Source: Candidatus Iainarchaeum sp. (lineage in GTDB: Archaea; Iainarchaeota; Iainarchaeia; Iainarchaeales; GCA-2688035). Taken from it: DNA of 26,979 nucleotides. The notes beneath the pieces are model-generated. The model did not search any database and was not told the DNA's origin. It worked only from the letters and a program-made list of their open reading frames with translations. The translations under genes were made by a program, and so were the position numbers. The stretch covers positions 1-26,979 of the forward strand of contig JAFCFG010000006.1 of NCBI GenBank assembly GCA_017608725.1, written 5' to 3'. Position 1 is the first letter of the stretch. The number at the start of each line of letters is the position of its first letter. Shown here one piece after another: positions 1,184 through 24,146 of this stretch.

Positions 1184-1231
1184 AATGCATACTTAACAGA
1201 AGAGAATATATTGCACAGGTGTTTTTTGGCC

Positions 1232-7200: not shown

Positions 7201-8491
7201 AGAGGCAGCAGGGAATGCAGCGTGGAGCAACCAGGAGAGGGAAGAGATACTGGAAACGATTAAATTCAATGCATATTTGATTAAGGACGCTTATACAAAT
7301 GATTTCAGGGAAGACTTTGATTTATTCTGCAAGCAGATGAGCTTCTTTGACTGCCCGGATTACTACACGGATTCAAGCAATGGATTGCACAAGCTGTTTG
7401 CAGACAGGGAGAGATTCAGATTTGATTACAGCATGGCCCCACATGCCCCGGTGGACGCTGGAAAGTACGCTGTTGAAATAAACGTTGAGTTTGGCAACCA
7501 GAACTGGGATTTGTTTGTGGGGGAGGAACCAGATGCAACTGTTTCAATTGAAATGGCGCAATTGAGTGCACCGGAGCCAGAGAGCCCGTTTTACTACTTG
7601 CCATTTGACGGCTTGGTTGGAATAGACAGCGAAAACGGCAGGCAGGGTTATGGAGTAAACTTCAGGCAGACAAGCGAGGAAACAATTAAAATCAACAACA
7701 GCCTGCTTCAGCCAGTCATAAGCACCAATGTTGCAAACAGCACGCCTGTCCTAAACGGATGGATTAACGCAGGCTTTAACGACAGCTTCAGGAGGCTGAA
7801 CCAGGACAAGAGGGGGATCCTGCTTGATGTAGTGGCAGGCACTGATTCAACAAATATTGTTTTAAGCCCAAGCTATGCAACCCCTGTTATGATGAAAGTG
7901 GATTACGAGAAAGGTGAGCACGCTTATGGCTTTTATTCAGTTGAAATTGATGACAGCCCGCAGGTTGCCTTTGAAAGAATGATTCCGTGGAGTGGCATAG
8001 GTCCAAATTGCAGGGATTTTGATGACAGACCGGTTACAGAGGCATGGCAGGATACCTGGGACAAGCATGGGGGCATAAGCGGAAACTTGATTTGCGCTGT
8101 TGGTACAGAGGTAACAGATTATGGAATTGAATGGTGCAATCCAAAGAGAAGCGGCAGCGTTTTCCTTGAAAGCGTTGTCTTTACTCCGCAGAATACCGTG
8201 AGCTTGATGAAGAGAACGGCTTACGGCGATGGCATGACTTTGATTACTGCTGACAACAGAGGCAGCCAAGTAGCATTGAACGGCATTCCTGGCATGCGCT
8301 ACAACAGCTTTGGAACAAGCGAAATTGATTCCATTGAGGATGTGTTTGCATTGGTTAGGGAAAGCAAGGTCTGCTTGGTTGGAGCAGATAACAGGAAAAG
8401 CAACCAGTTCTTCTGGAATCCAAAGATTGTATTGCAAGAACTCAGCCAGGAGAGGACAGAGGCTGAAGAGAGCTGTATCAGGCCAGCGTAG
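1232..8491 (+). CDS. Giant (2419 aa) N-terminally membrane-anchored surface protein with carboxypeptidase-regulatory-like (prealbumin-fold) repeats (paralog 2)
   Basis: ATG at 1232 is preceded by an AGGTG RBS-like motif (1217-1221); the ORF track's TTG at 1211 is a less likely start. A hydrophobic segment (FALFLVVLIALVLFLAFMLPG) is followed by repeated units of the type V.V.D..G..V.GA.V...TD..G (e.g. FRVVDSEGATVEGATVQV, VKVLDQDGKLVKGATVGLY...TDLNG, VTVKDKRTNAELENAIAKL), which match the CarboxypepD_reg-like pattern. The protein contains many paired Cys. Confidence 0.85.
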   Translation: MALEGLKEAYFRLEDRWYAAIDRIDSRIPIHGLIDRIDRIVPSFALFLVVLIALVLFLAFMLPGMLAAGARFSFRVVDSEGATVEGATVQVLMEGKEIALQQTDKLGETAPIVLPLDAEVEIKVSKKDFISTTKTITVSESILLYEVMLEREEEKRYTISLKSSLGQPIREPVILTFSCRNPAIASWEVPVVSGSATVTEPANCQGLIASVRGQGFEPIDSVDVTLSNQTIYLQEIVSGNATITVELLFNNQTISEEVTVYLYRIDDATGAEIGPIESAVSENGIATFSRQPAQYFVKSSGYGNFAAASSASFSVSAGEQKNIQLHLERNVVGYVKLKILDEITGAAVDDATVFLRLGGEEIDSKKSSADGNGFVEFPVSVDTAYSIIVDHPAYCLKVVHDVNPSTSVKHIELKPFTVDCGGKLKVKVLDQDGKLVKGATVGLYTESGFSAGFSTQVTDLNGITVFEGAPSGNYKAFAFKGSSSGWSEVEHFVQRAAEKTTLTAVLDVKNGTVRVKVIDKEGEPMQFSEVAFVDAATNEIIGGGAKPVQDVNGVVELITRADKQVYIVARNPGYTNFTSIVKPVLSNSTQNFTAVLEKEIIQGEIEIEFRGVYKNGKSVSALARGEKYTALFNLKIPANKSYDEIGMHVRTGSHTMMELDELVLREINAPGKANILKATTYSQGDGYAFDSRNLSSDEAKWANIKWNEFQTGIIEVAVEFQVKEATRQTEIQAGELELSYRAWAVENGLYKRNPLDNDLGEAESVPGKEALYAKTKQEIFQIGLETICDELFCFSASILDIEDGLIESATEGYNGKVFKEYKLSFTILNNSEFETNSYPNAELKILNVDEGLLLQDYKAYGAQGQLVEGIVSGSETKWIAVGDMEPNNTVAGNINFTPQKSTGGAITIQLRSMQRIQFEKSIMINATAEKQLNVVAAPELLPSGTQNDLTVTVKDKRTNAELENAIAKLKDRFGAIVAEKTTNRMGIAVLRLPGMQPGETMRLIVGKPGYETFERAIQVDEKVIAIKPTKIGVALNTKTALEAEDQFSVENMTALDLTIKDVRLTGRAYGLIDTEKMNNWLFGYIGEVIKPGELREMQLKSFLSEKGRKLQESRNVEAELEMTVASNGSEWVQTAPVKINVGLGGEVDDPACFTVTRKEWNGSTEGKPIEIEFELQNNCSSGGIPVQLKDIAAKIVWQTNQVGEYALRTQYTAIGIRSGYFKKFIEVIEPEQSVSVVLQFNANGGIRGKGMAEIIFQAENKTDTTTQLLTDEISSEITVVNLADCIGFDKDVLIIKPEKTGSFNIDTVNCGARNEIKLESDLALSKRTLTLGETDSKEVEVFAEKNMPGQYPVRVYAKGSDDVQFKLIKTIRARILSDKCLELTRYEFDVFDNPENPYDGYDTAELINNCYDKPVQITVHYDEHDWGDAMKTGALYGLVMGLMGAMGQSAEKNAAAEIAAASSVTKGITPNGTIVALKGGVWTDAKGSTVAGNVYPYRTIESGGAYYSGYDHGDGDLYDALGNKVLDKKTTGAWFWKGTKYVPTGNIAGPEAAQGGMPASTTATGSVVLGSPAGASLLGGIFGGGGPGGSLAGNLVMGLGSSILGKPSFLGWGLQGFLAGTLIAYEQQDEGELSFTTIEKDVVYRDSELLLPGLTLDEDKIVETPSEDIILRKPDEEEVSTEPKEEDRRLSKETRKLWFWNTAGVVQPDPETPLYRILRVDNERRIYKTEYETDEKGNPGIEIKERKDHKERFRLQFNAFDPLLIDRISGPIPNCKLGNVVGVTGPNAVPRVSFNWDWQSIGESSCVEGNDDYIYCDATQFSIVVLKKLHKLQEFIDMYKPFDCPSPVTAAAVKEQPMVGTAYDVAITKIQANKIATSDANIVVTVESNNGKQMASSLQIFLRDDTGTVVKGCDKQFSLLSRNVVNCEFTGLAEGLYDVQATIEPDLCPDCENSDSANDSISAQLFVGAGGVVECEPFNTKRLPLFIEATEAAGNAAWSNQEREEILETIKFNAYLIKDAYTNDFREDFDLFCKQMSFFDCPDYYTDSSNGLHKLFADRERFRFDYSMAPHAPVDAGKYAVEINVEFGNQNWDLFVGEEPDATVSIEMAQLSAPEPESPFYYLPFDGLVGIDSENGRQGYGVNFRQTSEETIKINNSLLQPVISTNVANSTPVLNGWINAGFNDSFRRLNQDKRGILLDVVAGTDSTNIVLSPSYATPVMMKVDYEKGEHAYGFYSVEIDDSPQVAFERMIPWSGIGPNCRDFDDRPVTEAWQDTWDKHGGISGNLICAVGTEVTDYGIEWCNPKRSGSVFLESVVFTPQNTVSLMKRTAYGDGMTLITADNRGSQVALNGIPGMRYNSFGTSEIDSIEDVFALVRESKVCLVGADNRKSNQFFWNPKIVLQELSQERTEAEESCIRPA

Positions 8492-8689: not shown

Positions 8690-11600
8690 ATGGGCTTGAA
8701 AGATGCGTATGTTGCATTAGAGGATAAATGGTATGGTTTCTTAGACAGGGTTGATGCCCACATCCCAATATACAAGATAGTTGACCCAATCGACAGGGTT
8801 GTCCCATCCCTCCTTCTCTTTATTGCAGTAATTGTTGCATTGCTTGCTTTCTTTCTTATAATGCCAGGGCTTCCCATGACAGGGCAGGTTTGTTGCAGAG
8901 GTAATAAACAGCAAGGAAACAGGTGCTGACGGCAGCATTAAATTCAATGCACCCTTTAATTCAAGCATTGAGATAAGGATCGAAGAAGTAACAGTTGATG
9001 GCGTAGAATACGAGGCGAAGCATATAAAGTTTCAGGTTGCTGAGGAAGCTGATTTTAGCCAAAAAATTATTTTGAAAGAGAAAGGGCTACCATTCATTAA
9101 GAGAACCATCCTGTTCCAGAACAGCGCTGGCGAAAGAATAACAGGTGAACTCATCAAAATAAGGCTTAGCTGCCAGAATAACCTGGCCCAGCTGCCCCAA
9201 ACAATAGTGGCTGACAACGACAAAGACGGGAGCATTGCAGTAAATATGCCCAGTGACTGCGGAATACTTTACGCAGACATCATAGCGCCAAGTAAATTCA
9301 AGCAGATGAGCTACACAATCTCAAACAGTACGCAGGCAATAAAGCTAGAAAGCCTAGATGTTGCAAAAGGCTCATTGAGGGTAAAGATAAAGGACGGCCA
9401 GGGAAACCTGGTTACCGGAACCAACTTCAGCGTCAAACTCATGGACAGCGCTGGCTCACAGGTCAGTGAAAAATACAGCCTGAACTACGGTGAAGCCTTT
9501 TTCACTGATGTAACAGCTGGAAGCTACAGCGTAAGCGTTGAAGACTTGGACGGAGACTATGGGCTTGCATCCAAGAGCAATGTTCCTGTTCCTGTTGATG
9601 ATACAGCAATAGTTGAAGTGGTTGTAAGCAAAACAGTTAAGGCAACCATTAACGTAAGCGTTGTTGACAAGGCAACCCAGCAGGCAATTCCAAACGCAAC
9701 TGTAAAACTGTTTGATTCAAGCGGCAGAACACTTAGTGAAAAGAACACTGGAGACCAGGCAGAGGTTGTTGTCTTCTATCTGACAGACAACAAGGATTAC
9801 ACTATTATTGCATCGCATGATGATTACTTGTATGAAACAGCCAGCTTGCAGCAGGTAAGCAACCTGGATGTTAAATTTGAATTGGACAGAATAACAGCCC
9901 AAAACAGTGGAAGGGTAAAGGTAAGGGTATTGGACGAGGATGGCCTGGTTGTCCACAACGCAAAGGTCAAGTTGCGTTTTCTGGAAACGGAAATGCTTGC
10001 TCCCTACCCGGCAAAAACCACTGACAGAAACGGCATAGCAAGCTTTGTTGGGGTAAAGGAAGGAAGCTATTACGCTTACGTGGAGAAGTATCCTGCCTTT
10101 GGAGACAACAAGCCTGAGGGCAAGGAAATAGACATCAGGGAGGTAACATACTTTACAGTTCACCTCTACATTGGCAACAGCATGGTTCAGGTAAGGGCAG
10201 AGGACGAAGACGGAATGCCGGTGCACGAGGCAGAGGCAGAGTTCTTTGCAGAGAATGGGGAAAGCCTGGGAAAGATTCCTTTGCCAGAGGGCATTGGCCA
10301 GTATGAACTGAAAGCGGACAAAAGGGCATATGTTGTTGTAAGGCACGATAACTTCATGTCAGTGCAGACAATGCCACAGCAGCTTTGGCCAAACCAGACA
10401 ATCAGCTTTACTGCAAAAATGGAGCCAAGGCTTGTTCTGGGAGACCCAAAAATAGAGTTTGAGGGGATATTCAACAAATCAGGAAAACAAGTGCAGCAGC
10501 TGGATGCAGGAAACAGGTATTTTGCAAGGTTTAAGTTGAGCGTGCCAGAGGCAGGCAATTTCAGCCAGGGGGGCTTCCATTTTAGAATAGGGGATGAAAG
10601 ATTGCTTGTAAATGAGCCCCTGGTGATAAAGGACGTTATTGCAGGGGACATAAAGGCTCCGTTGAAGGGAACGAGCTTTACCCCGCCAATTGGATATGAG
10701 AAAGACAGCCAAAATTTAACAGAGGGAGACGCGAAATGGGTTAACATATGGTGGTCAGACCTTCAACCAATGAATTATTATTTTGGGTTTGAGATAAGGG
10801 TAAAGAGCCAGATAACCCCCTACACAAAGCTTGCAATGCACTACAGGGCATGGGCAAAGGACGAGGCAGAAGACTATGTCAGGGTTCCATATGATTCCAT
10901 CCTTGGAACTGCTGAAACAACAGCAGAAAAGCAGGCGCTTTATGCAAAAACCCTTGACCTGCAGTTCCTGGAGGGCTCACCCAGTGACTGCCAGGAGGAC
11001 TTTTGCTACAGTGGAGAAAGCATACTTGACGAGGACAGGGGGCTTTACATTTATGAGCCCTATCAGATGAGGGCAGGGGCCAAGCACAAGCTGACATTTG
11101 ACATATTGAACAACAGTGAAAGGCAGTACGACAGCAGTGAATTATACATAACAGTGGATGGTCTAACCATAACAGGATATGAAATAGTAAACGCTTCAGG
11201 GCGAGAAACAGGTGCAGAGAACATTGCAGGGAAAAAGGTTGAAGCCATTGATTTGGGTGAATTCACCAAGGGGAAGAGTGTCAGCAGCAGGGTTTCTTTC
11301 AGCGCCTCTTCAGCTGGGAATGCGGCAATTGAAGTAAAGGTAATTGCAGATGGCAGGGTTGTTTTCCAGAGGAACATTAGTGCACAGGTGGTTAGCGAAA
11401 GGGAAATGCAGGTTTCGGTTGACCCAGAAACAATACCGGCTTATATAGCAAACGATTTGCAGGTTTACATTAGGGAAAATGCCGATGGGCAGCACTTTGA
11501 CGTTGACAACGCACTTGTAAGGCTTACAATAACGCATCCAGACAAAACAACGGAATTTTACACTTCTATTACAAACGGTTTTGGAAAAACAAGCTTTAAC

Positions 11601-14600
11601 CTGCCTGCTTTGCAGCCAAACGCAAAAATAGTGGTTGAGGCAGAGAAGCCAGAGTATTATGCAGAGCCGCTTGTTTTGTTTGTTGACAGCAACGTTCTTA
11701 GGTTCTCTCCTGGCAAAGTGAATTCAAATTTGGATACCAGGGGAGTGAAAGAGCAGGTGTTTACTGCTGAGGCCAGGAATGTTATTGGAATTGACCTCAA
11801 AATCAAGAACATTGCTTTAAGCGGGGCATTCAAGGGGTTGCTTGACAGGGGAACAATGGCAAACTTTGCAAAACAGTACATTGGAATGACAATTGAGGGC
11901 AGCCAAAGCGCTGTAAGGGAGTTCTTCAAAACAAAGCTGAGTGCAAACGCAAGGGAACTGCTTTTAAGGAACGAAAAACTGTTGGGCGAATACGTTGTTA
12001 CTGCAACAAACAGCGACGAAAGCATTACCTGGGACATAATTGTGCCATTGCAGGTTAGGGTGGCTGTTGGCGATTTGCCTGACAATGCACCCTGCCTGAT
12101 AATTTCAAGGGAGAAGTGGGATGCCTCCACTCTTGAGAACAGTGCAACTATTGAATTTGAGGTACAGAACAACTGCATGGCAGCCGGCAGCTTTGTTGAA
12201 TTGGACAATTTGCAGGCAATGCTTGAATGGCAGGGAGACGCAATTGGAACAGTTGAGCTAACATTGATTGAAGCAGAAACCGGCAGCAGCAACAGCGAGA
12301 TTCTAAGGCCTGGAATGTGGGTGCAGTTGTTCAAAACAATTCAGCCTGATTCAATCTACTACGCAATGCTTACCTTTACACCAAAGCAGGGCCATTTGGG
12401 TGAGACAGCGAAATTCACTGTGGACATAGATGGCCAGACAACCACAAGCGGGGGCAGTGCCTTTGTTGGCTCAAAGCCAAGCAAAATCACCTCAAACATT
12501 AAAGTCGTGAATTTGCAGCAGTGCATCACATACGAGGGAGCAGAGAACGTTGTTGAATTAAGAGCTGGGCAAAACGATGGGGCATTTACTGTTGATTCAA
12601 GTGATTGCGGTAACACTGGGGTAACAATTGAATTATGCAGGCAAAATCCAAATTGCAGCGGGGGAGCAGAGGGAGGAATTGAAGTAACCCCCCTAAGCTT
12701 TACCCTAAGGCCAGACAACCCAACAAAGGAAATACTTGTAAGCAGAAGAAGCATTCCGGGAATGTATGGAATCAACGTTGAGGCAAAAGTAGCAGGCACC
12801 TCTTTCAGAGAGGTAAAGAATATTGATGTATTGGTTGAACCAGAATCAAGCAATGAATTTGCTCTTGACAAATATGAACTGAGTTTGAAGGGGATTGGGG
12901 CAAAGGACGAGGTAAAGCTGACAAACAAGGCATTGAGTGAAACTGTTTCAGTTGATGCTTCTGCATGCGACTGGGGCACAGCAGAGGAAGAAGGAATGTT
13001 TGACTTGGCTGGAGCTGGGATGGGTGCTGCTATTGCAGCATTGTTGGGCGCAAAAACAGCGATAGAGCAGGCAAGCGAAGCAACAAACGCAGTTAACCTT
13101 GCAAGAACCACGGATTTAAGCAATGCGCTTGAACAGGCAAGAGCAGCAAACCAGGCAACAGAAGCTGCAAAGGCTGCAAGCGAGGCAGCGAAAACTGCTT
13201 CGGAAACAGCCCAAAATGAGGCAGTGAAGTCAGCAAATAGAGCTGTTCAGCAGGCAGCAGCAAAAGCAGGCAGCATTCCAGCAACATGTGATGCAGGCAC
13301 TAACACATACTTGGGCAATGCAAGTAGCAATACAGGTGCAGCAGACACAACTGCAAGCAGCTCATTTATTTCAAGTATCGGAAGCATGATCGGGTCAATT
13401 TTAAGTGGTGTTGGAAAAATTGGCAGCGGCGTATTTAACACTATTACAGGAAGGGAAACAGCATCAGCCAATGAGGCCTGGCAGGTAAGCACTTCCCCAA
13501 TGAACTCAACAAAGGACCTTGACAACAGCATTGCTGATACAGATAGCGCGATTTCGCATGTAACTGATAACAGGGCAGAACTGGTAAAAAGCCGGGCTGA
13601 TGCTGAAACAATGCTGGCAGAACTGAACAATGCAAAAATACAGCTTGCCGGGGCAAGTGCATCAATAGATTCCAGCATTGGCATATGCACTGCTGATTGC
13701 GCACTAGAACCAGCAGGGCCCTGCTGCCCGCACCTTGGCACTGCCCAGGCTGCCAAAGGGGAAATAAATGCTGCCATTGCAGCAGTTGACAACGCTATTG
13801 CAAAAACAGAGGCTGCAAAGGCAGAAATTGCGGAAGCAATTAGTTCAGCAGATAGCTCCCTTGCTGAGCTTCAAAGTACGCAAACACTGCTTCAAAACGC
13901 AAAAACCTCAATGGGCAAGCTTGGCAAAACAATGGCAGCAACAGAGGGGGCAAGCAGCTTTAACAAAGGCAAGTTCTTTGGCATTTTGGGTACGTATGCT
14001 GCATTGGGTGCAATTGCCGGTGGCCTAATGGGCGGCGTATTTGGAGATGACCCCTGTGACCAAAGGGTTACTGCAAACCTAATGGACTATGTGATTAACC
14101 TGAAGGATGATAATTTGCCACTGGCTGTTGACAAAGAGGGAGTTACTGCGGAGTGGAAAACAGATGGTGCACAGGTCTTTGGCACTTATGATAGCCAGGA
14201 AGTTGGAATTGAATTTAATAATGTTTCGGTTGAACCGGGAAAGCCGACCTATGCAACAGTAACCATTAGTGCAACAAGGCATTACCATGCAAGCCCAACA
14301 ACTATTAGCAGGGGCGACTCAGGATTTGGGCCATTTAATGTTCCTGACCAAAGAAGCGAAACCTACACCCAGAAGTTCCACTTGAAGCTTAACACAAAGG
14401 ATATCTCGCTTGAAATACCCCCCCTGCCAGAGGAAGAAGGCTGCCTGATGGGAACCCTTGTAGGGAGAACAGGCAGGGAAGCCCTGCCAAAAATAAAGCT
14501 TAATTGGAGCTGGGATGACCAAACAGGGATTGCAGCAGATGAGTGCGATTATTTGAACGATGAAGCAGTTTACTGTGATGCAACCCAGTTTGGCATAATG

Positions 14601-16139
14601 GTGAACAAAAGGCTGAGGGCATTGGAGCAATTCCTTTCAGCGAATACTCCCCTGCCCTGCCCGCCAAATCCCGCAATAGAATCCCTGGAAGAGATTGGGG
14701 AGGAATACAATGCAGCCCTGGACGAGCTGGGCATGGTGCCGTTTGTTCCGATGGACGTGGACAGTTGTTGGATGCCCCGTTCTACTGTTCTGTTTGACGG
14801 AAAGCCTGCTTTGCTTTACTACGTTGAAGCAAATTTGGATAGCATTACTTGGACTGAGGAAGTGCCTGATTTGGATTCCCTGAGAAAGCTGCTGCATTTC
14901 AAGGCCTATTTGATTAAGGACGGCTACAGTGGGGATTTCCAGCGTGACTTTGTTGAATTCTATACGACAACCAGCTTTTATGACCCTCCGGAATGGTTTG
15001 TTGGTTCAGGGGAGAGATACGCTGACCTGTTCAGTGACCAGGATATTATGAGGTTTAGAACAAGGTATGCTGGGGATGAAAGGCTGTCTTCAGCTGGCTT
15101 GTATGATGTGGTTCTGGCAGTCAATTACTTCAATGAGGACTGGCAGTTGTTCAGGCTGGGTTTGCCTGATGCAAAGATTGTTGTTGACCTGCATCTTATT
15201 GAGAACCCTTACCCTGACTCAATATTCTACAACCTGCCGTTCAACGGAAACATTGGAAAGGAAAGTAGCAACGGCAGGGTTGGCTACGGTGTGAATTTTG
15301 AGAACAGGAAGGACAACATCCTGATTACCGAGTACCCGGGCGAATCAATTGACACTGCTGCAATTAGCGGCAGCACTACCATAAGCGTTATTGAAACAGA
15401 TGTTGAAACTGACATAAAGAAAATCAATGCAAGCGCTTCCAACAGGGGATTTTTGATGAATGTGGCAGAGGGCTCAGGCAGTGTAAAGGAAATAACCTTC
15501 AGCCCAAATTATGCCACTCCTGTTTTGCTGCAGCTCAGCCATGGCAGGGACGAAGAGCCCTTCTCTGCGTTCTATCAGCTGCAGGAAACCCTGACGCCTG
15601 TAGAGGTTGGAACAAACCTTGGGTTTTGGACTGGCTCAGGAGAATGCTTGGACTTTACTGGCATTCCAGTATTTGAGGCATTTGACTTCAAGGCAGACAG
15701 GGAAGCAACTAGCAGCGACAGGCTAAGCAACTGGGAGTTTGCCTATGCAGTTGACTGGGACAAGGCAGACTACAGCGGCAATGTTTACCTTAAAACAGTG
15801 TTCTTTACCCCAACAAACGGCAGCTATAATTTGAAGGCACTGCAGCCAACTGAACTAAAGTTTATTACACCAAGCAGTGGCAGCCAGCAGGTAGTTGAAT
15901 TGGAGGGAATTAGGGGCATGCAGCACAACAGCAGGCAGGGGATGGACAATGCAAAGAGCCTGCAGGACCTCTTTGATTTGGTGGAAAGCAGGCATGTCTG
16001 CGTTACAAATTCAGGGGCAAGGACAGCGTTTTGGTGGAATCCGAAAACATTGTACGAAACAGCCGGCCCAAACACAAGCATTAGGGACTTTGAAGAAGGC
16101 CTTGTTGCTGGCCAAAGCTGCATTGGATACAGCAGTTGA
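8690..16139 (+). CDS. Giant (~2480 aa) surface protein (paralog 3), interrupted by a frameshift near 8880-8895 (possible pseudogene or assembly error)
   Basis: ORF 8690-8929 (MGLKDAYVALEDKWYGFLDRVDAHIPIYKIVDPIDRVVPSLLLFIAVIVALLAFFLIMPG) aligns residue for residue with the N-terminus of paralog 2. A second frame is open from 8880 (after TGA at 8877-8879) to TGA at 16139 and reads ...VAEVINSKETGADGSIKFNAP...LKEKGLPF, running into the tracked 9072 ORF. Domain order and motifs (DWG, YCDATQF, YLIKDGY) match paralog 2. Confidence 0.8.
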
Positions 16140-16235: not shown

Positions 16236-16450
16236 AAACCAGCCTTATTTTGGGGAAAAATCAATTAACAGGGGGCCAGTTTCTTAAAGCGCCCTGTAGA
16301 AATGATTCATAAATGCAAAATTTGAATCCCTTAAATCGGCTTTAAACGGCAAAATAGCAGCAAGGCATTTATAAACAAAAATAGAATTTCTACACAGGAT
16401 TTCTTAAAGCAAATTAATTTAAATCAGAACAATTATTCTAGTTATTGGTT

Positions 16451-16843
16451 ATGGTTCAAGATATTTTGCCAATGCTCTTTGCTTTGTTTTCCTTTTCAGA
16501 GTTTTTTGGAGACATGACCTTTGTTTTGAAGATATTTGTTTTAATGACAATAATCAGCTTTATTGTAATGCATTTGGGAACAGGGCCCCTGGCAATCATA
16601 TTGATTTTGGGGATAAGCTACTTTGTTTTGATTGGTGCTTTTTGGTTTTTTGGCTCAGTCTATGTTCTAATGATGCTGCTGATGTTCGGAGTTTCAGGCA
16701 TTTTAATTGATTTCTTTTTTGTTGGAGGGATGGGAACGCCGCAAGAGCAGACACCAATAAGCCATGGTATTGACTTGAGGGCAAAGAGGGGGGCAATGAT
16801 GGCGCATGGCAGAGGCAGCCCCAGAAGAAGAATGATGAGATGA
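16451..16843 (+). CDS. Small multi-pass membrane protein (130 aa) with a basic C-terminal tail
   Basis: ATG at 16451 lies two codons after the tracked TTG. About 95 aa are almost entirely hydrophobic and are followed by an Arg-rich tail (RAKRG...RGSPRRRMMR). It contains the LG-x3-LAI-x7-Y motif shared with the next two ORFs. Confidence 0.75.
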   Translation: MVQDILPMLFALFSFSEFFGDMTFVLKIFVLMTIISFIVMHLGTGPLAIILILGISYFVLIGAFWFFGSVYVLMMLLMFGVSGILIDFFFVGGMGTPQEQTPISHGIDLRAKRGAMMAHGRGSPRRRMMR

Positions 16844-16849
16844 AAAAAG

Positions 16850-17188
16850 ATGGCTTTTTCAATGAACCAGCAGGGGAACATGCTTTTGTTTATTTTCATT
16901 GCCTTCCTTATCTTAGCTGTGCTGCCCCCCATTGTAATGATGCTGTTTCCAGCGGCAGACATCATAATCAGGGTAATACTTGTTTTGCTGATTTTTTCAA
17001 CTGTAAGGGGCTATCTTGGAGGGGGCATTCTCTCGCTTATAATTAGCGGCGTGCTAATTTACTTCCTTGTAATCAAATGGGCTTACTTCACTGCATCCAT
17101 GTATGTGTTCTTTTACTTCATAATGACCTTTGCAATTACCTCAGTGGTGATTTGGGGAATCGGAATGAATATAGGGAAAAGGGGGTAG
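16850..17188 (+). CDS. Small multi-pass membrane protein (112 aa)
   Basis: Hydrophobic throughout, with 3-4 predicted helices. It starts 6 nt after the previous stop codon (operon-like) and carries LGGGILSLIISGVLIY. Confidence 0.8.
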   Translation: MAFSMNQQGNMLLFIFIAFLILAVLPPIVMMLFPAADIIIRVILVLLIFSTVRGYLGGGILSLIISGVLIYFLVIKWAYFTASMYVFFYFIMTFAITSVVIWGIGMNIGKRG

Positions 17189-17260: not shown

Positions 17261-17300
17261 AAGAAACGGCATTAATTTCTATGTAAGGTGCATCAAAAAA

Positions 17301-17564
17301 ATGTTTTTTGCATTGCTGCAATTGAACGAGGCAACCCTGTACACTGATCTGTGGACAGTTCTCTCACTGTTCTACCTTGTGTGGATCTTTGGCTGGGCAA
17401 AGAATGCACTGGGTTCAGCAAAGCTTGCAATACTGTTTGCGGTAATAGTTGTTTACCTGACTTTCTTTTTGCACCCTGAACTGGTCTGGTTGCCAGTGCT
17501 GATAATAATTTTTGCTGCCCTTGGAAAAGGCGTGTTTGAAAAAGCAAACGTGTTCAAGGACTGA
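17301..17564 (+). CDS. Small multi-pass membrane protein (87 aa)
   Basis: AAGGTG upstream of the ATG, three hydrophobic segments, and the motif LGSAKLAILFAVIVVY. Confidence 0.8.
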   Translation: MFFALLQLNEATLYTDLWTVLSLFYLVWIFGWAKNALGSAKLAILFAVIVVYLTFFLHPELVWLPVLIIIFAALGKGVFEKANVFKD

Positions 17565-17576
17565 GCTGGAAAGGGA

Positions 17577-17921
17577 GTGGTTTTTTTGGATACATTTACC
17601 TTCATGGTTGCTATTCTCCTAATGATGCTTGCAGTGCAATTCAACCAAAACTGGCTTGTTTTTGCAATTGTTGCAATAATGATTCTAACCATGCGGAGTC
17701 TTAGCACCACGCTTTTCCTAATAATTGCAACAATTGTAATGTTTGTTTCAAAAGAGTATCTTAAGGAATACTGGCCATTTGTTCTGTTTGGCCTAATAAT
17801 CCTTGCGCTGTTGATTGGCATTGGAAAGAAGGACGGGGGCCAGCCGGAGGCGATGCCAATGGACCTGTACGGCGGTGGCTTTGATGCAGGGGGCTTTGGC
17901 GGCTTACCAGGGGGGCTTTGA
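17577..17921 (+). CDS. Small multi-pass membrane protein (114 aa) with a Gly-rich C-terminal tail
   Basis: GTG start after GGAAAGGGA, about four hydrophobic segments, and the tail GGGFDAGGFGGLPGGL. Confidence 0.8.
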   Translation: MVFLDTFTFMVAILLMMLAVQFNQNWLVFAIVAIMILTMRSLSTTLFLIIATIVMFVSKEYLKEYWPFVLFGLIILALLIGIGKKDGGQPEAMPMDLYGGGFDAGGFGGLPGGL

Positions 17922-17986
17922 AATCGGGGTTGTTTGATTAGGAGGGGCTTTGAGGTCAGGGTTATTCTATTAGGGGGCTTTGAAAT
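17909..17986 (+). repeat. Degenerate ~31-bp tandem triplication beginning across the stop codon at 17919-17921
   Basis: GGGGGCTTTGAAAT at 17911-17924 and 17973-17986, and GGGGCTTTGA at 17944-17953. Confidence 0.6.
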
Positions 17987-18372
17987 TGTTGTTTTATCAG
18001 ATGAGGCAGAGCATTATCTTTCTCCTGATAATAGCAGGGTTTGGATTCATTGCAATTGACCAGCCGCTGCCGGCTGGCCTTTGCTTTATTGCAGCTGTTC
18101 TCCTCCTAATAGTGAAAACAGTGAAGAAAACAGTTCAAGCAGCAGGGGCAACAGCAGGGGTAATGGGCTACGGCGTTAAAGAGGAAGTCAGCAAAGCAAA
18201 GGGCAATTACCCTGACCCAAACGTTTTCAAGGAGGGCATTGAAAACGCAATTGACTTAACAGCACAGCAGGTGCACGCACCGGACACGCACAAGTTCAAG
18301 TACAAGGGAGTTGGCGCATTTGGTGAGGGATGCAACAAACTGATTGACGCATTCAAAAGGGTTTTCAGATAG
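17980..18372 (+). CDS. Membrane protein (~130 aa) with two N-terminal hydrophobic helices and a soluble C-terminal region
   Basis: Hydrophobic hairpin IIFLLIIAGFGFIAI...LCFIAAVLLLIV followed by a charged region. The start is uncertain (TTG 17980 or ATG 18001). Confidence 0.75.
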   Translation: MKLLFYQMRQSIIFLLIIAGFGFIAIDQPLPAGLCFIAAVLLLIVKTVKKTVQAAGATAGVMGYGVKEEVSKAKGNYPDPNVFKEGIENAIDLTAQQVHAPDTHKFKYKGVGAFGEGCNKLIDAFKRVFR

Positions 18373-18540: not shown

Positions 18541-19074
18541 CTACATCTTCCCAAGAATCTTCCTGTCGGTTTCAAGAATCTTTTCCATAACGGTTTTCAG
18601 GGCCTTGTTTAAGGCCTTTAAATCAGAAACCTGCTTTTCAAGGCTGCCCAGCCTTTGGTTTGCTGCTGCAAGCATGTCAACTAGTTCTTTGTTGCTTGGT
18701 GCCTCTGTTAAACTGTGGATTTTTCCAAGCTTTTGCTCGACCCTGCCAACCTTCCTGCCCAATTCCTCAAGCCTTTCACCGTGGTCTGCAATTGCAGCCT
18801 GCGTGGTTGCATGCATTGCCTCCTGGGCAGCAAGCTCTTCCTCAACCCTGCTGCTTGCCATCTGCTTAATCGGGGGAGAAGGCCTTGCAGTTGGGGCTGG
18901 CGCTGCAGCAGCTGGCTTTTCTTCAATTGGCTGGCCCTTTGCCTCTGCCATATAGGCCTCTATTTCCCTCTCATTCAAACCAACGTCAAGCAGGGTTTGC
19001 TTTACAACGCTGTCCTCAATTCCAGAGTCGTACATTTTCTTAATTGTCTCCAGTACAACCGCTTTGTTTACCAT
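18541..19074 (-). CDS. Hypothetical protein (177 aa): small N-terminal helical domain, Pro/Ala linker, C-terminal coiled coil
   Basis: GGAAGG RBS-like motif upstream on the minus strand, heptad pattern in RLEELGRKVGRVEQKL and RLGSLEKQVSDLKALNKAL, and a natural amino-acid composition. Confidence 0.8.
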   Translation of the reverse strand: MVNKAVVLETIKKMYDSGIEDSVVKQTLLDVGLNEREIEAYMAEAKGQPIEEKPAAAAPAPTARPSPPIKQMASSRVEEELAAQEAMHATTQAAIADHGERLEELGRKVGRVEQKLGKIHSLTEAPSNKELVDMLAAANQRLGSLEKQVSDLKALNKALKTVMEKILETDRKILGKM

Positions 19075-19295: not shown

Positions 19296-20822
19296 ATGAT
19301 ATTCAAATTAAGGCAGGGGCCTTGGACAACCGTTTTCGAAGGCAAGTTTCTTGGCCATGAGGTTGAACTGCTCCAAAACGAAGAAGGGCTGCTGCTGACA
19401 GTTATCTACGAGAAGGAAGGCGAAGAAACAAGGGGAATGCTGCTGCAGGCATTCACGCTGTTTCACGCAATCGGAGAGGTCCAGGGCTTTGTTGAAGGCC
19501 TGGGCAACGAAGCGCTTACTTTTTCAAGGCACGATGGAAAAAGCACCATTCACTTTCTAATAGCTGGCTCGAAACCAGAGTACAGCAGGGTTGTTGAGGA
19601 ATCAGTGACAGACACTGTTGACAGGCTAATAGAGCAGGCAAGGCAAAGGGGGAAAAGGCTGTCAAACATATCAAAGACTTATGAGCTGCAGCTAACGCCC
19701 TTGCAGGAGTGCAGCAGAAACGTAAAGCAAATCTTCTTCAGCCAACCGTTCATCATTCCGCTGCTTCAAAAGGTTGAACAAGGCAAAGAACAGGAGCCAG
19801 CTGCTGAGCTGGTGTCAGAGCCAAGGCAGGGGGAAGCAATCATACTTGGAATAACGAAGGACGAAAAGCAGGTTAAGGAGCCGCTGCTGTTCTTCAAAAA
19901 CACGCTTGTTGAAGGCAAGCCAGAGCAGGAGAGGCTGCACTTCCTATGCCTCCTAATAGAGAGTGCTCTTATCTCCAACATAGTTGTGATAATATTTGAT
20001 GAGGGGCACTACTTCGATGGCTTGAGAAGGCCGAATAGGAATGTTCCACTGCTTCAAAGGTACAAGGTTGCAATAGAGCCGATTGGCTTCCCAGTAAAAA
20101 ACTTCAAGGCGGCGGACGATATAAAGGTTGATTTAAGCAGCGTCAGCATAGAGGGGCTGATGCAGACATTTGGGTGCCCTGCAGCAACATGCCAATTGGT
20201 CCATGAGGGAATTGAAAACAAAGGCATTCAAAGCATGGAAAAACTGATTGAAACGGTTAATACAGCAAAGGGCCAAGAGAGAACGTTTTTGTTTGAAAGA
20301 AACAGGGTCAAGAGAATAATCAAGCTCATTGAGGTGCTTTACCCGGGGCTTTTTGGTGCAGGAAACGACATGCAGCAGATTGCAAGAGGTTGGTTTAAGG
20401 CAATTGGCAGGGCAAGCGTTATTCAAGTAGATGGGTTGGACGGGCGGGCCAGGGCTGTCCTGGTTAACAGTTTTTTAAACGAGTTGGCAGCATTCTTCAA
20501 ACAAAGGCATGGCAAGGGGGAACTGGAGGCAATTGTTGTTCTGCCAAATGCTGCAAAAATATTTCCAAGAAAGCAAACAATTCTGAGCAAGGACTCGGTA
20601 AATGCTCTGAAGCTGCTGCAGCAAACCGGGGTTGGATTTGCTATGACAGCTGACAGAATCCTTGACTTGGATGCAGAGCTTGCTGAAATGGCTGATGCAA
20701 CAGTAAGCATTGTCAAAGCAAACGATGCAGCCATTCAATTGAAGGGCAGGAAGAGCTACAGGGTTTTGCTGAGGCCAGGCCTTAGCGAGTGCACAGGGGA
20801 CCGGCAAACAGGGCAAAAATAG
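19296..20822 (+). CDS. HerA/FtsK-superfamily (DUF853/YjgR-like) ATPase homolog with degenerate catalytic motifs
   Basis: The motif order matches HerA-like ATPases: IILG...TLVEG(P-loop position)...LIESAL...VVIIFD..YFDGL...FPV, then GRASVI..D...LNEL...IVVLPNAAKIF (Walker B position)...GVGFAMTADRILDLD. The Walker A GK[ST] and Walker B DE residues are absent. The family call is from pattern recognition, not a profile search. Confidence 0.6.
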   Translation: MIFKLRQGPWTTVFEGKFLGHEVELLQNEEGLLLTVIYEKEGEETRGMLLQAFTLFHAIGEVQGFVEGLGNEALTFSRHDGKSTIHFLIAGSKPEYSRVVEESVTDTVDRLIEQARQRGKRLSNISKTYELQLTPLQECSRNVKQIFFSQPFIIPLLQKVEQGKEQEPAAELVSEPRQGEAIILGITKDEKQVKEPLLFFKNTLVEGKPEQERLHFLCLLIESALISNIVVIIFDEGHYFDGLRRPNRNVPLLQRYKVAIEPIGFPVKNFKAADDIKVDLSSVSIEGLMQTFGCPAATCQLVHEGIENKGIQSMEKLIETVNTAKGQERTFLFERNRVKRIIKLIEVLYPGLFGAGNDMQQIARGWFKAIGRASVIQVDGLDGRARAVLVNSFLNELAAFFKQRHGKGELEAIVVLPNAAKIFPRKQTILSKDSVNALKLLQQTGVGFAMTADRILDLDAELAEMADATVSIVKANDAAIQLKGRKSYRVLLRPGLSECTGDRQTGQK

Positions 20823-21104
20823 TTTTTGGCTGCCTCTCCTTTCCCATCCAAGAATTTTTCCCCGGCAATTTTTTCTTTTCAAAAAAAATAGTTTTTGGGG
20901 TTTCCTTCCAATTGTTCAATTGCTTTCTTCTTTTTTCCTTCCAATTGTTTTTTCCTTCAAAAAAAATTTAATTTTTCTTTTTTTCTTGTTTTTCCATTAA
21001 AAATCTGCCTTCTCTTTTTTTCAGTTGCTTTTTTTCCCTTTAAAAAATCTTTTTTTGTTCTTAATTTGGCTTTTCCCCTTTGTTCCTATTTTTTCCCTCA
21101 GAAT
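20815..21104. repeat. Pyrimidine-rich low-complexity tract between convergent genes, with 15-bp and 16-bp direct repeats; possible terminator region
   Basis: AAAAATAGTTTTTGG at 20815-20829 (spanning TAG 20820-20822) and 20884-20898; TTTCCTTCCAATTGTT at 20901-20916 and 20934-20949; many oligo-T runs on the + strand. Confidence 0.7.
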
Positions 21105-21578
21105 TCATTTTTTCTTTTTCCTCTTCTTTTTTCTTTTAACGCCCTTTTCCCCCAACATTTCCCTTGCCTGGTCAATTGTTACAAACTGCAGCGGGTTAAT
21201 TGAGTCAACAACGTAATGCATTTCCTGCAGTTCTTCCTTTGAGGCAGCCCTCTCTTTCAGGGATTGCAGCTCGGCCCGTAATGCACTTATCTGCCTGCTA
21301 CTCTCCTCAACCCTCTCTTGCAAAAGCTGCAGCTGCTCCTTTCCGATGCCAGAGCCTGTGACAGAGCCAAACTGGCCTGCTGCAAGCTTCTCCTCCAAAG
21401 CCTTTAGCTTCTTGTGCAATACAATCAAATTCCTGCCAAGAATCTTCTCATTTCTTACCAAATACTTTATTTTCTGGGTTATTATCAGAACACTGCTGTT
21501 TAGGCTCCTCATGTCATCGTGCATTCTTGCAAGCAAAATCTTGGCCTTTACAGGTTTCCCTTTTCCACCACTAGCCAT
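21105..21578 (-). CDS. Hypothetical coiled-coil protein (157 aa)
   Basis: GAGG RBS-like motif upstream on the minus strand, two heptad segments (LHKKLKALEEKL; LQERVEESSRQISALRAELQSLKE), and the C-terminal segment ELQEMHYVVDSINPLQF. Confidence 0.8.
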   Translation of the reverse strand: MASGGKGKPVKAKILLARMHDDMRSLNSSVLIITQKIKYLVRNEKILGRNLIVLHKKLKALEEKLAAGQFGSVTGSGIGKEQLQLLQERVEESSRQISALRAELQSLKERAASKEELQEMHYVVDSINPLQFVTIDQAREMLGEKGVKRKKKRKKKK

Positions 21579-21740
21579 AATTGCCTCAAACCTGTTAATT
21601 AAAACAACAAACTAGTATTAAATAATTTAGTTGGCCCATGTTGCCAATCTAAATAGGAGGCAATTAATGTTGCTTTAATTTCCAAGAAGCCAACAAACGA
21701 ATATTAAATGATTTAGTTGATTCTAATTAAGGGGGGACAT

Positions 21741-24146
21741 ATGGGTGAAAAAACCGCCAAGGGCATTCTTCTTGATGTTGGATACACGAACCAGGGCGAA
21801 AAAAGTGTAATAAGGCTGTACGTGAAAACAGAGAAGGGCATAGAAATATTCGAGGATTACTCCTTCAAACCCTATTTCTTTGTAACAGTGAATGATTTGG
21901 AAAGAGCAAAGAAAGCCATTGGAGAAGCAGCCTTCAAAGATGGAGGAAAGGTTGCAGGCATTGAAGAAGTGAAGAGAGCAAATGCTGAAAAGGTCCTGAA
22001 GCTTTCTTTTGAGAACGTGCAGCAGCTTGTTGCTGCAAGGGCAGAGGTTGAGGCAATTCCCTCTGTTCTGGGAAAGGCAGAGCACGATATCCCCTTTGCA
22101 AAGCGCTGGCTGCTGGACCACGAACTGCAGCCAATGAACGGAGTAGAGCTACTGCTAGGGGACAAAGGGATTAAAAAAGCCTGTTTAGTTGACTTGGCAG
22201 GGCCGAGATTCAACATCGCGGCATTTGATTTGGAAACACTGAGCCCTGGTCGGTTCTCTGACCCAAAAAAAGACCCTATTATAATGATTTCATTGGCGCT
22301 GCCTGGAAAAACAGCTGTGTTAAGCTACGGCAAATGGAGAAAGGCAGGAAAGGTGCAGTTGTTTGAACAGGAAAGGGGAATGATTGAAGCCCTTCGGAAA
22401 AAACTAAGGAGAGGAAAGCTGGATGTGATTGCAACATACAACGGGGATTTGTTTGACTTCCCTTACATAAAGGAAAGGTCAGAGAAGCTTGGGTTGAAAT
22501 TCAGCGTGGGGAGCGATGGCTCATTGCCAAAAACAATAAAGAAAGGCAGGGGCAGTGCTGTGAAGCTTGCTGGCATACAGCACCTGGATGTTTACCAAAT
22601 GCTTAGGTTTTTATCAAGGTTTGCTGTCGTTAACCTGGTCAAGTTTGATTTGGAGAGCGTTGTTGCTGGCTTGTACGGCAAGAAAAAGGAAAAGGTTGGG
22701 AGTGAGGAAATCAACGCCATCTGGCATGGAAAAAAAAGCCTGGAAAGGCTTGCAAACTACTGCGGAGAGGATTCAGAGTACACTCTCGAGATTGCAGAGC
22801 AGTACATGCCTCTGCTTGTAGAACTGTGCAAGATTGTGAAACAGCCATTGTTTGAGATTGGAAGGGCAAGTGCTTCAATGCTGGTGGAATACCTTATAAT
22901 GGACAAGTGCAGGGAAACCTCAAGACTGATTGCAAACAAGCCGGATGATGCAACAGTGCAGCAGAGGCTGATGCATCCAATAAAGGGGGGCTATGTAAAG
23001 GAGCCATTGTCTGGCCTGCATGAAAACATTGCAGTTTTGGACTTTAGCTCTTTGTACCCGACCATAATAATCAGCCACAATGTAAGCCCTGACACCCTTG
23101 GTTGTAAGCACGAAGAATGCAGGGAAAAGAACCTTGCGCCAAACAAGCACTGGTTCTGCAGCAAGAAAAAGGGCTTGATTCCGGAGATTCTTGATTCATT
23201 GTTTGAGAAAAGAATTAAGATAAAAAGGCAGGCGAAGAAGCTTGAAAGAGATGACAAAGGGTTTGTGTTATTGAATGCAAGGCAGCATGCATTGAAGATT
23301 TTGTTGAACTCTTTCTATGGCTACTTGCTTTACAGCAGGAGCAGGTTCTACAGCAGGGAGGCTGGTTCAGCCATAACAGCCTGGGCAAGGCAGTATGTGC
23401 AATGGGTTGGCAGGGAAGCAGAGAGGGCAGGCTTCAAGCTTCTTTACAGTGACACAGACAGTGCACTTTTGGTTATTCCAAAGGAGAAGGAAAGGAAGGA
23501 TGTTGAAGCATTTGTCAGGGAAATTAACAGGCAGTTGCCCGGTGTAATGAACCTTGAGCTGGAGGGCTTTTTCAAAAGGGGGATTTTTGTAACGAAAGAG
23601 AGTGGCGAGGGTGCAAAGAAAAGGTATGCATTGATTGATTACAAAGGGAATTTAAAAATAGTTGGTTTTGAATATGTCAGAAGAGACTGGGCAAGGATTG
23701 CAAAGGAAACCCAGAGGCAGGTGCTCAAAGCAATACTTGAAGAGGGCAACCCAGAAAAGGCGATCAAAATCGTTAAGAATAAAATAAAGGATTTGAAAGA
23801 GGGAAAAGTATCAAAAGGGGAGTTGGTTATTCTAACACAGTTGAAGAGGCCATTGGACAAGTATGAGAGCATTGGGCCGCATGTTGCAGCTGCAAAGAAA
23901 GCTGTTGCAAGGGGAAAGGAGATTGGGGTTGGAAGCGTAATTGGCTACATCATAACAAGGAGCGGAAAAAGCATTAGTGACAGGGCACAGCTTGCAGAAT
24001 ATGTTAATGAAGGAAACTATGACCCAGGCTACTACATTCAAAACCAGGTTCTGCCAGCTGTAATGAAGATTATAAGGGAATTTGATATTAGCAAGGAAGA
24101 CCTGCTGCAGGGCGGAAAACAGTCAAAACTCGGTAGATTTGGCTGA
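21741..24146 (+). CDS. polB: Family B DNA polymerase (archaeal, 801 aa) with 3'-5' exonuclease domain
   Basis: Exo I FDLET, Exo II YNGDLFDFPY, Exo III YCGED; polymerase motif A DFSSLYPTIIISHNVSPDT, motif B KILLNSFYGY, motif C YSDTDS, and GFEYVRRDW. ATG 21741 follows GGGGGGA. No intein-sized insertion. Confidence 0.97.
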   Translation: MGEKTAKGILLDVGYTNQGEKSVIRLYVKTEKGIEIFEDYSFKPYFFVTVNDLERAKKAIGEAAFKDGGKVAGIEEVKRANAEKVLKLSFENVQQLVAARAEVEAIPSVLGKAEHDIPFAKRWLLDHELQPMNGVELLLGDKGIKKACLVDLAGPRFNIAAFDLETLSPGRFSDPKKDPIIMISLALPGKTAVLSYGKWRKAGKVQLFEQERGMIEALRKKLRRGKLDVIATYNGDLFDFPYIKERSEKLGLKFSVGSDGSLPKTIKKGRGSAVKLAGIQHLDVYQMLRFLSRFAVVNLVKFDLESVVAGLYGKKKEKVGSEEINAIWHGKKSLERLANYCGEDSEYTLEIAEQYMPLLVELCKIVKQPLFEIGRASASMLVEYLIMDKCRETSRLIANKPDDATVQQRLMHPIKGGYVKEPLSGLHENIAVLDFSSLYPTIIISHNVSPDTLGCKHEECREKNLAPNKHWFCSKKKGLIPEILDSLFEKRIKIKRQAKKLERDDKGFVLLNARQHALKILLNSFYGYLLYSRSRFYSREAGSAITAWARQYVQWVGREAERAGFKLLYSDTDSALLVIPKEKERKDVEAFVREINRQLPGVMNLELEGFFKRGIFVTKESGEGAKKRYALIDYKGNLKIVGFEYVRRDWARIAKETQRQVLKAILEEGNPEKAIKIVKNKIKDLKEGKVSKGELVILTQLKRPLDKYESIGPHVAAAKKAVARGKEIGVGSVIGYIITRSGKSISDRAQLAEYVNEGNYDPGYYIQNQVLPAVMKIIREFDISKEDLLQGGKQSKLGRFG

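Follow-up and report, generated by a model that had tools for sequence, protein, structure and literature searches.

F1, a HerA-fold protein without Walker motifs, and its conserved gene block in Iainarchaeota

HerA (central domain DUF87, Pfam PF01935) is the described protein best matched by F1 (P0001), the subject of this study. F1 is a protein of 508 amino acids (aa) encoded at positions 19296–20822, on the plus strand, of a 26,979-nucleotide stretch of DNA from Candidatus Iainarchaeum sp. (contig JAFCFG010000006.1); this stretch at its full length is referred to below as the window. With the HerA proteins of Sulfolobus (PDB 4d2i) and Deinococcus (PDB 7wrw) F1 shares the RecA-like core, the insertion formed by a helical bundle, and a length of about 500 aa. 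However, it has neither the lysine nor the serine or threonine of Walker A, and the acidic pair of Walker B, the arginine finger and the sensor glutamine are absent as well. Moreover, its N-terminal domain, modelled as an alpha/beta, chaperone-like one, appears to differ from the HerA barrel. Nor does F1 adjoin NurA, Mre11 or Rad50, while the HerA–NurA pair of the same genome is situated on another contig. Since F1 has neither the catalytic features of HerA nor its genomic association, annotating it as a HerA helicase would be wrong.

The second-best sequence match of the F1 family is YjgR, a DUF853 protein (PDB 11kk), with an E-value of 1.7e-6 in the region from Walker B to the GVG motif. YjgR retains DEAH at the place where the F1 family has a proline followed by a variable residue.

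Degenerate domains are known in the EccC and EssC proteins of type VII secretion. These domains (DUF, D2 and D3) have the FtsK–HerA fold and, like F1, degenerate nucleotide-binding elements both in cis and in trans. The DUF domain of EccC5 is free of ATP, and its Walker A, devoid of the glycines, the lysine and the serine or threonine, is folded as an extended alpha-1 helix; the domain was proposed to keep hexamerising below the membrane pore (PMC11154593). Unlike F1, which stands alone, the dead domains of EccC and EssC are fused to an active D1 domain and to membrane helices, and F1 has neither of these. By analogy, EccC and EssC may offer, in their degenerate ATPase-like domains, the closest functional parallel to F1, which differs in being free-standing.

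A different arrangement is seen in the Ced and Ted systems, where the HerA/VirB4-fold protein is encoded next to the small two-pass CedA1/CedA2 and the multi-pass CedA membrane proteins (PMC9905601). The locus of F1 is similar to these systems and to type IV secretion in that a gene for a protein of the HerA/VirB4 fold stands beside several genes for small membrane proteins. However, CedB and VirB4 are active ATPases, whereas the motifs of F1 are degenerate, and, unlike Ced and Ted, the F1 block belongs to the chromosomal core in nearly every genome searched. Pfam provided no sequence link between the four small membrane proteins of the block (F7, F10, F11 and F9, described below) and VirB2, VirB3, VirB6 or CedA. 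The ATPase fold is the only part of the block for which a link to Ced/Ted or type IV secretion was found.

The HerA-type core of F1 and its catalytic positions

The first-pass annotation of this region, made from the sequence letters alone, proposed an uninterrupted open reading frame (ORF) encoding a HerA/DUF853-like ATPase with eroded catalytic motifs. The frame was confirmed by translation. The single F1 sequence has no match in Pfam, NCBIfam, PHROGs or the PDB sequences, and hence its assignment to HerA had to be tested through its relatives and through structure. A hit to HamB reported by PADLOC is a fragment of only 14 bits and was dismissed as noise.

The word-indexed search yielded 25 relatives from DPANN metagenome bins, all of about 500 aa, with identity to F1 of 28–67%. 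The exhaustive search yielded 217 cluster representatives, 177 of them with E <1e-10. A smaller family profile was built from 26 sequences, while the large profile and all motif counts given below are based on 145 full-length relatives. Seven of the 26 close family members match Pfam DUF87, the central domain of HerA, at E ≤0.1, the best E-value being 6.7e-8. F1 itself is below the threshold of this Pfam model, while the family profile reaches Sulfolobus HerA 4d2i with E 7.6e-4 when built from 26 sequences and 7.5e-7 when built from 145. In the search of the PDB sequences with the large profile, 4d2i is followed by YjgR (DUF853, E 1.7e-6) and then by bacterial HerAs, with EccC (E 0.011), DptH and TdpA matched more weakly; no VirB4 was matched in this search.

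The structural comparison agrees with this assignment. The AlphaFold2 model of F1 has a predicted local distance difference test score (pLDDT) of 79.7, and its top Foldseek matches are HerA hexamers, with E of about 1e-12. In VIA-align, approximately residues 175–508 of the model superimpose on HerA 7wrw with Z 24.0 and a root mean square deviation (rmsd) of 4.2 Å over 320 residues; the Z-scores of this core are 23.2 for HerA 4d2i, 22.8 for DndH-C, 21.7 for VirB4 and 17 for TrwB. The F1 core is the RecA-like core of HerA including the helical insertion, although the identity to the solved HerAs in the structural alignments is only about 10–14%. The fold alone hardly separates HerA from VirB4 as the nearest match; by sequence, F1 sides with HerA/DUF853. 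F1 is a true HerA-fold protein, and the proposed RecA-like fold of the HerA/DUF853 type is thus borne out by the family profile, Foldseek and VIA-align.

The degenerate Walker A position, TLVEGKPEQERL (aa 203–214, 19902–19937 on the plus strand), reads GKPEQERL where an active protein has GxxGxGK[ST]; K[ST] is found there in 0/145 relatives. The family consensus at this position is T-h-V-x-G-G-x-x-x-[ED]-R. Residue R213, which the profile alignments put on the Walker A lysine K154 of HerA, is kept in 118/145 relatives (81%). In the model, a strand (residues 202–206) and a three-residue turn (207–209) are followed by a helix starting at residue 210, all with a pLDDT of about 93. According to this prediction, the phosphate-binding loop has become part of a longer, N-terminally extended alpha-1 helix.

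At the degenerate Walker B position, IVVLPNAA (aa 413–420, 20532–20555, plus strand), F1 reads VVLPNA. Only six of the 145 relatives have an acidic pair here; the pairs Pro-Glu, Pro-Lys and Pro-Asn dominate, Pro-Glu being the commonest. In the profile alignments the family string vvlPEAe sits on viEEAH of HerA and on LVLEEAH of the HerA from the same genome, and the family GVG sits on RKFGVG.

The latter motif is a part of the segment LQQTGVGFAMTAD (20616–20654, plus strand), whose HerA counterpart in the profile alignment is REGRKFGVGLTIVSQR. Here the GVG scaffold is kept, while the arginine-finger segment and the sensor position are lost: LQQTGVG occupies aa 441–447 (20616–20636), and TA, aa 451–452. 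Among the 145 relatives there is no conserved arginine before GVG (positions 439–444) and no conserved glutamine at the sensor position 452, which is variable. Apart from GVG, F1 retains the hydrophobic strands ahead of Walker A and Walker B. The motif strings had been located initially to within 3 nucleotides of the positions measured here: the Walker A string was given as about 19899–19935, and IVVLPNAA was placed exactly.

No ortholog with intact Walker motifs occurs among the 145 relatives. As the motif loss is common to all of them, it is a trait of the whole family rather than of this copy, and it is old. The description of the nucleotide-handling motifs as degenerate therefore stands for Walker A, Walker B, the arginine-finger segment and the sensor alike. 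The label of a pseudo-ATPase is also fair, as the motifs are degenerate in a gene under purifying selection, but the erosion, initially ascribed to this copy, is family-wide.

Retention of the family and the N-terminal domain

Of the 201 genomes searched in the phylum (labelled Iainarchaeum or Diapherotrites at NCBI), 190 carry the F1 gene, mostly as a single copy, and so do all 58 of the 58 high-quality genomes (at least 90% complete). Very few matches in the 201-genome search contain internal stops. The ratio of nonsynonymous to synonymous substitution rates (dN/dS), a comparison that the first-pass annotation had suggested, is 0.08–0.31 in pairs of F1 orthologs with identity of 71–97%. F1 is kept under purifying selection, and the idea of a retained gene is upheld both by these values and by its near-universal presence in the phylum.

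The family has acquired a set of conserved residues of its own. G185 and E222 (codon 19959–19961, plus strand) are invariant in the 145 relatives, at least 97% of which retain R340, R489 and R493; D235 is also conserved, and a conserved E-P-I-G-F-P motif is situated around residues 261–266. The most distant family members (20–25% identity) are labelled Micrarchaeota. Every source that names a member of the family calls it a hypothetical protein; no Pfam model is dedicated to the family, and no paper describing it was found.

The N-terminal alpha/beta domain of F1 (aa 1–152, 19296–19751, plus strand) features a conserved G8-P9-W10 motif and is followed by a charged linker (aa 154–179, 19755–19832, plus strand), modelled with low confidence (pLDDT <50) and variable and gapped in the alignment. 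When residues 1–152 were folded alone, from 36 sequences, the model had a pLDDT of 91.9 and consisted of a seven-stranded sheet and long helices. In the comparison with 48,161 representative chains, eight of the ten best matches were type III secretion class I chaperones or members of the related YbjN family. The chaperones matched include AvrPphF ORF1, SrcA, VecA and SicP; the scores of the chaperone and YbjN folds are Z 6.5–7.7, with rmsd of about 3–4.5 Å over 99–113 aligned residues. Foldseek is in weak agreement, yielding YbjN at E 0.02. The modelled domain thus bears a weak resemblance to the fold of YbjN and the type III secretion chaperones, and the argument for this fold is solely that the top matches agree with one another.

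No HerA chain is listed among the matches of this domain in the same set of representative chains, and in the whole-protein alignments the match to HerA starts only past the HerA's own N-terminal domain. There are weak leads to the N-terminal domain of VirB4, namely, TrwK residues 16–200 with Z 5.3 and Atlas feature matches of 0.77. Pfam produced no consistent match for the N-terminal domains of the F1 family, and no match to the VirB4 N-terminal family. Of the proposal that F1 carries an extra N-terminal domain of about 180 aa, the distinct domain is retained; it comprises aa 1–152 and is followed by the linker. An N-terminal domain is present in canonical HerA too, so that the one in F1 is not extra: it occupies the place of the HerA N-terminal barrel.

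F1 in a conserved gene block

Synteny was assessed at 35 loci with enough flanking sequence, a few among them being duplicate fetches. The order and orientation of genes around F1 are fixed across these loci. Upstream of F1, on the plus strand, there are genes for four small multi-pass membrane proteins: F7 (16445–16843, 31/35 loci), F10 (16850–17188, 31/35), F11 (17301–17564, 35/35) and F9 (17577–17921, 34/35). The proteins are of 87–132 aa with two to four hydrophobic segments each, and they have no meaningful match in Pfam even at E up to 5. They are followed by F8 (17980–18372, plus strand), a fast-evolving protein with N-terminal membrane segments and a soluble part, detectable by tblastn in only eight of the loci. 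The F6 gene (18541–19074, minus strand), divergent from F1 and about 1.1 kb upstream, is present in 34/35 loci; it encodes a conserved N-terminal domain, a linker and a coiled coil.

On the other side of F1, the F3 gene (21105–21578, minus strand) is convergent with F1 in 35/35 loci. F3 is a coiled-coil protein whose motifs at both ends are conserved; it has basic termini and a lysine-rich tail. Profiles of F3 and F6 yielded only generic coiled-coil matches in the PDB and no known relatives. F3 is always adjoined by a gene for a family B DNA polymerase, PolB (21717–24146, plus strand; Pfam DNA_pol_B, E 1.4e-60), found in 34/35 loci, and PolB is followed by methionine aminopeptidase (F5) in 11 of 13 compared loci. 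At the opposite end, the window contains three giant surface-protein paralogs with Ig-like/CarboxypepD_reg domains (2–1183, partial, 1211–8491 and 9072–16139, all on the plus strand), and homologues of these are situated upstream in 31/35 loci; within the flanks of L026, L032, L064 and L070 there are none. Outside the block the neighbourhoods differ between loci.

Of two relatives used to reach further loci, P0124 led to L073–L075, and P0136 to no locus among the metagenome contigs. In L073 and L074, labelled Micrarchaeota, the core consists of four small multi-pass proteins, a soluble protein of 150–176 aa, F1, F3, PolB and the aminopeptidase. The giant proteins of the window have no significant match in these two loci. 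The most constant partners of F1 are the small membrane proteins, F3 and PolB.

Starting from the observed fold, motif loss, retention and synteny, we put at about even odds (a probability of roughly 0.5) the reading that F1 descends from a HerA-type ATPase of the FtsK–HerA superfamily, lost catalysis long ago and serves as a static, probably ring-forming scaffold of a membrane-associated module. In the model the P-loop has given way to a helix extended at its N-terminus, as in the DUF domain of EccC, and for this reason F1 would have lost both binding and hydrolysis of ATP. It would still assemble, probably as a ring, so that its ATPase past would survive only as architecture. Such a ring could form a static platform at the cytoplasmic face of the membrane, working with the neighbouring small membrane and coiled-coil proteins, and the chaperone-like N-terminal domain might be an adaptor holding a segment of a partner polypeptide.

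Several considerations weigh against this reading. The loss of ATP binding, the oligomerisation, the association with the membrane, the choice of partners and the contact with the neighbours are steps that we infer. F1 itself lacks membrane segments, and the scores of the N-terminal fold are in the grey zone (Z <8). With F6 and F3 encoded in the opposite direction, the block does not form a single operon, and since it contains housekeeping genes, PolB and methionine aminopeptidase, a part of the synteny may reflect other causes. In some lineages the block does not adjoin genes for giant surface proteins. Finally, as R213 occupies the place of the Walker lysine in 81% of the relatives, some ligand could bind at the old site.

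The last point has a stronger form, in which a remodelled site of F1 (R213, E222, D235, R340, R489, R493) still holds a nucleotide or some other ligand bearing a phosphate, and F1 acts as a non-hydrolysing switch. It would account for R213 at the Walker-lysine position in 118/145 relatives, for the invariant E222 and for several nearly invariant arginines. However, the glycine-rich loop and the magnesium-binding serine or threonine are absent, and the predicted helix extends into the P-loop, a configuration that excludes ATP in EccC5-DUF (PMC11154593); we regard such a switch as quite improbable. Decay of F1 as a pseudogene, or a chance ORF, to which the absence of Pfam, NCBIfam and PHROG matches for the single sequence might point, is refuted by the intactness of F1 in nearly all of the 190 genomes and by dN/dS of 0.08–0.31, and has next to no probability left. 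The constancy of the F1–F3–PolB neighbourhood, which exceeds that of any other part (35/35 and 34/35 loci, as well as L073 and L074), could reflect a role at DNA, with F1 as a ring or adaptor that, together with PolB and the lysine-tailed F3, would, for example, tether or organise replicating DNA, using the DNA-encircling geometry of HerA without the motor. The HerA relatives are DNA translocases, judging by the PDB titles, and the termini of F3 are basic. Still, F3 and PolB belong to transcription units other than that of F1, no motif for DNA binding was recognised, and the methionine aminopeptidase following PolB is a reminder that adjacency of housekeeping genes need not mean a shared function. 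This role seems unlikely.

The first-pass annotation suggested a dead subunit that mixes with an active HerA/VirB4-like partner encoded elsewhere; in rings formed with a HerA-type paralog, F1 would tune the motor. Candidate partners do exist. The source genome (1.14 Mb, 82% complete) encodes three DUF87 paralogs with intact Walker A and/or Walker B: a canonical HerA adjoining NurA on contig C162, with GFGKS at Walker A and Walker B intact; a DUF87 protein of 432 aa that retains both motifs; and a HerA-like protein that contains an intein and has kept Walker B. One to five DUF87 paralogs are present in each of the 59 genomes checked (59/59), and the canonical HerA is the closest to F1 among the paralogs of its own genome by profile (hmmsearch). 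On the other hand, no paralog is situated near F1 at any locus examined, F1 is only about 10–14% identical to the solved HerAs and has what appears to be a different domain in the N-terminal place, and, as active paralogs occur in all genomes checked, their co-occurrence with F1, both being core genes, cannot discriminate. Hence, while the paralogs are there, nothing specific ties them to F1, and we consider a mixed ring improbable. The neighbours of F1, that is, the small membrane proteins, the coiled-coil proteins and PolB, point to a different set of partners.

One possible, though rather doubtful, interpretation is that the four small membrane proteins, F8, the two coiled-coil proteins and F1, in many cases preceded by giant surface proteins, make up an undescribed cell-envelope machine of Iainarchaeota and of their Micrarchaeota-labelled relatives, derived from a translocation apparatus of the HerA/VirB4 type, in which the motor has turned into a static ring, now anchoring or organising surface structures for attachment to the host. 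The genomes of DPANN archaea, about 1 Mb in size, leave hardly any space for dispensable genes, and a large share of their conserved core lacks annotation. A dead motor retained in 58/58 high-quality genomes within the same membrane and coiled-coil block makes this block a candidate core machine of these DPANN cells; F1 is probably a structural component of such a machine, one not yet described. F1 would then be a clean natural example of an ATPase turned into a scaffold, and the block supplies concrete candidates for its partners.

Further features of the block and its loci

The intein-containing paralog of F1 is encoded on contig C50 (L002:31-3648, plus strand). It consists of DUF87 and HerA_C, and its LAGLIDADG intein is inserted directly after GARGSGK of Walker A.

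The conserved N-terminal domain of F6 (aa 1–45) comprises about 40 well conserved residues with the consensus MVN..VV..TI.KM..SGIDD..I.STL.DIGL, followed by the variable low-complexity linker.

A search for the N-terminal leader motif of the giant proteins, a putative binding target of F1, retrieved only the window's two own copies, most loci ending short of these N-termini. In the third giant paralog, the leader and the membrane anchor are encoded by a separate short ORF (8690–8929 of the window) upstream of the main ORF 9072–16139, which is consistent with the frameshift noted earlier.

Two minus-strand ORFs, 17293–17547 and 17453–17821, overlap the F11 and F9 genes. They are probably spurious, since the plus-strand ORFs have homologues in 34–35 of the 35 loci. 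The 282-bp gap between F1 and F3 (20823–21104) is T-rich on the plus strand. A low-complexity ORF rich in phenylalanine and leucine (20895–21203) has no homologues and probably is not a gene.

Four contigs of public metagenome-assembled genomes, L040, L042, L045 and L053, are titled as Thaumarchaeota, Chloroflexi/Chloroflexota or Micrarchaeota and carry the block, with identity of their F1 proteins of 35–41%. The synteny is fully of the Iainarchaeota type in L040, L042 and L053, while L045 is too short to show it. These four contigs are probably mis-binned or mislabelled.

At one locus (L034:10883-14650, plus strand) the PolB ORF, of 1255 aa compared to the usual length of about 805 aa, seems to carry an insertion, perhaps an intein.

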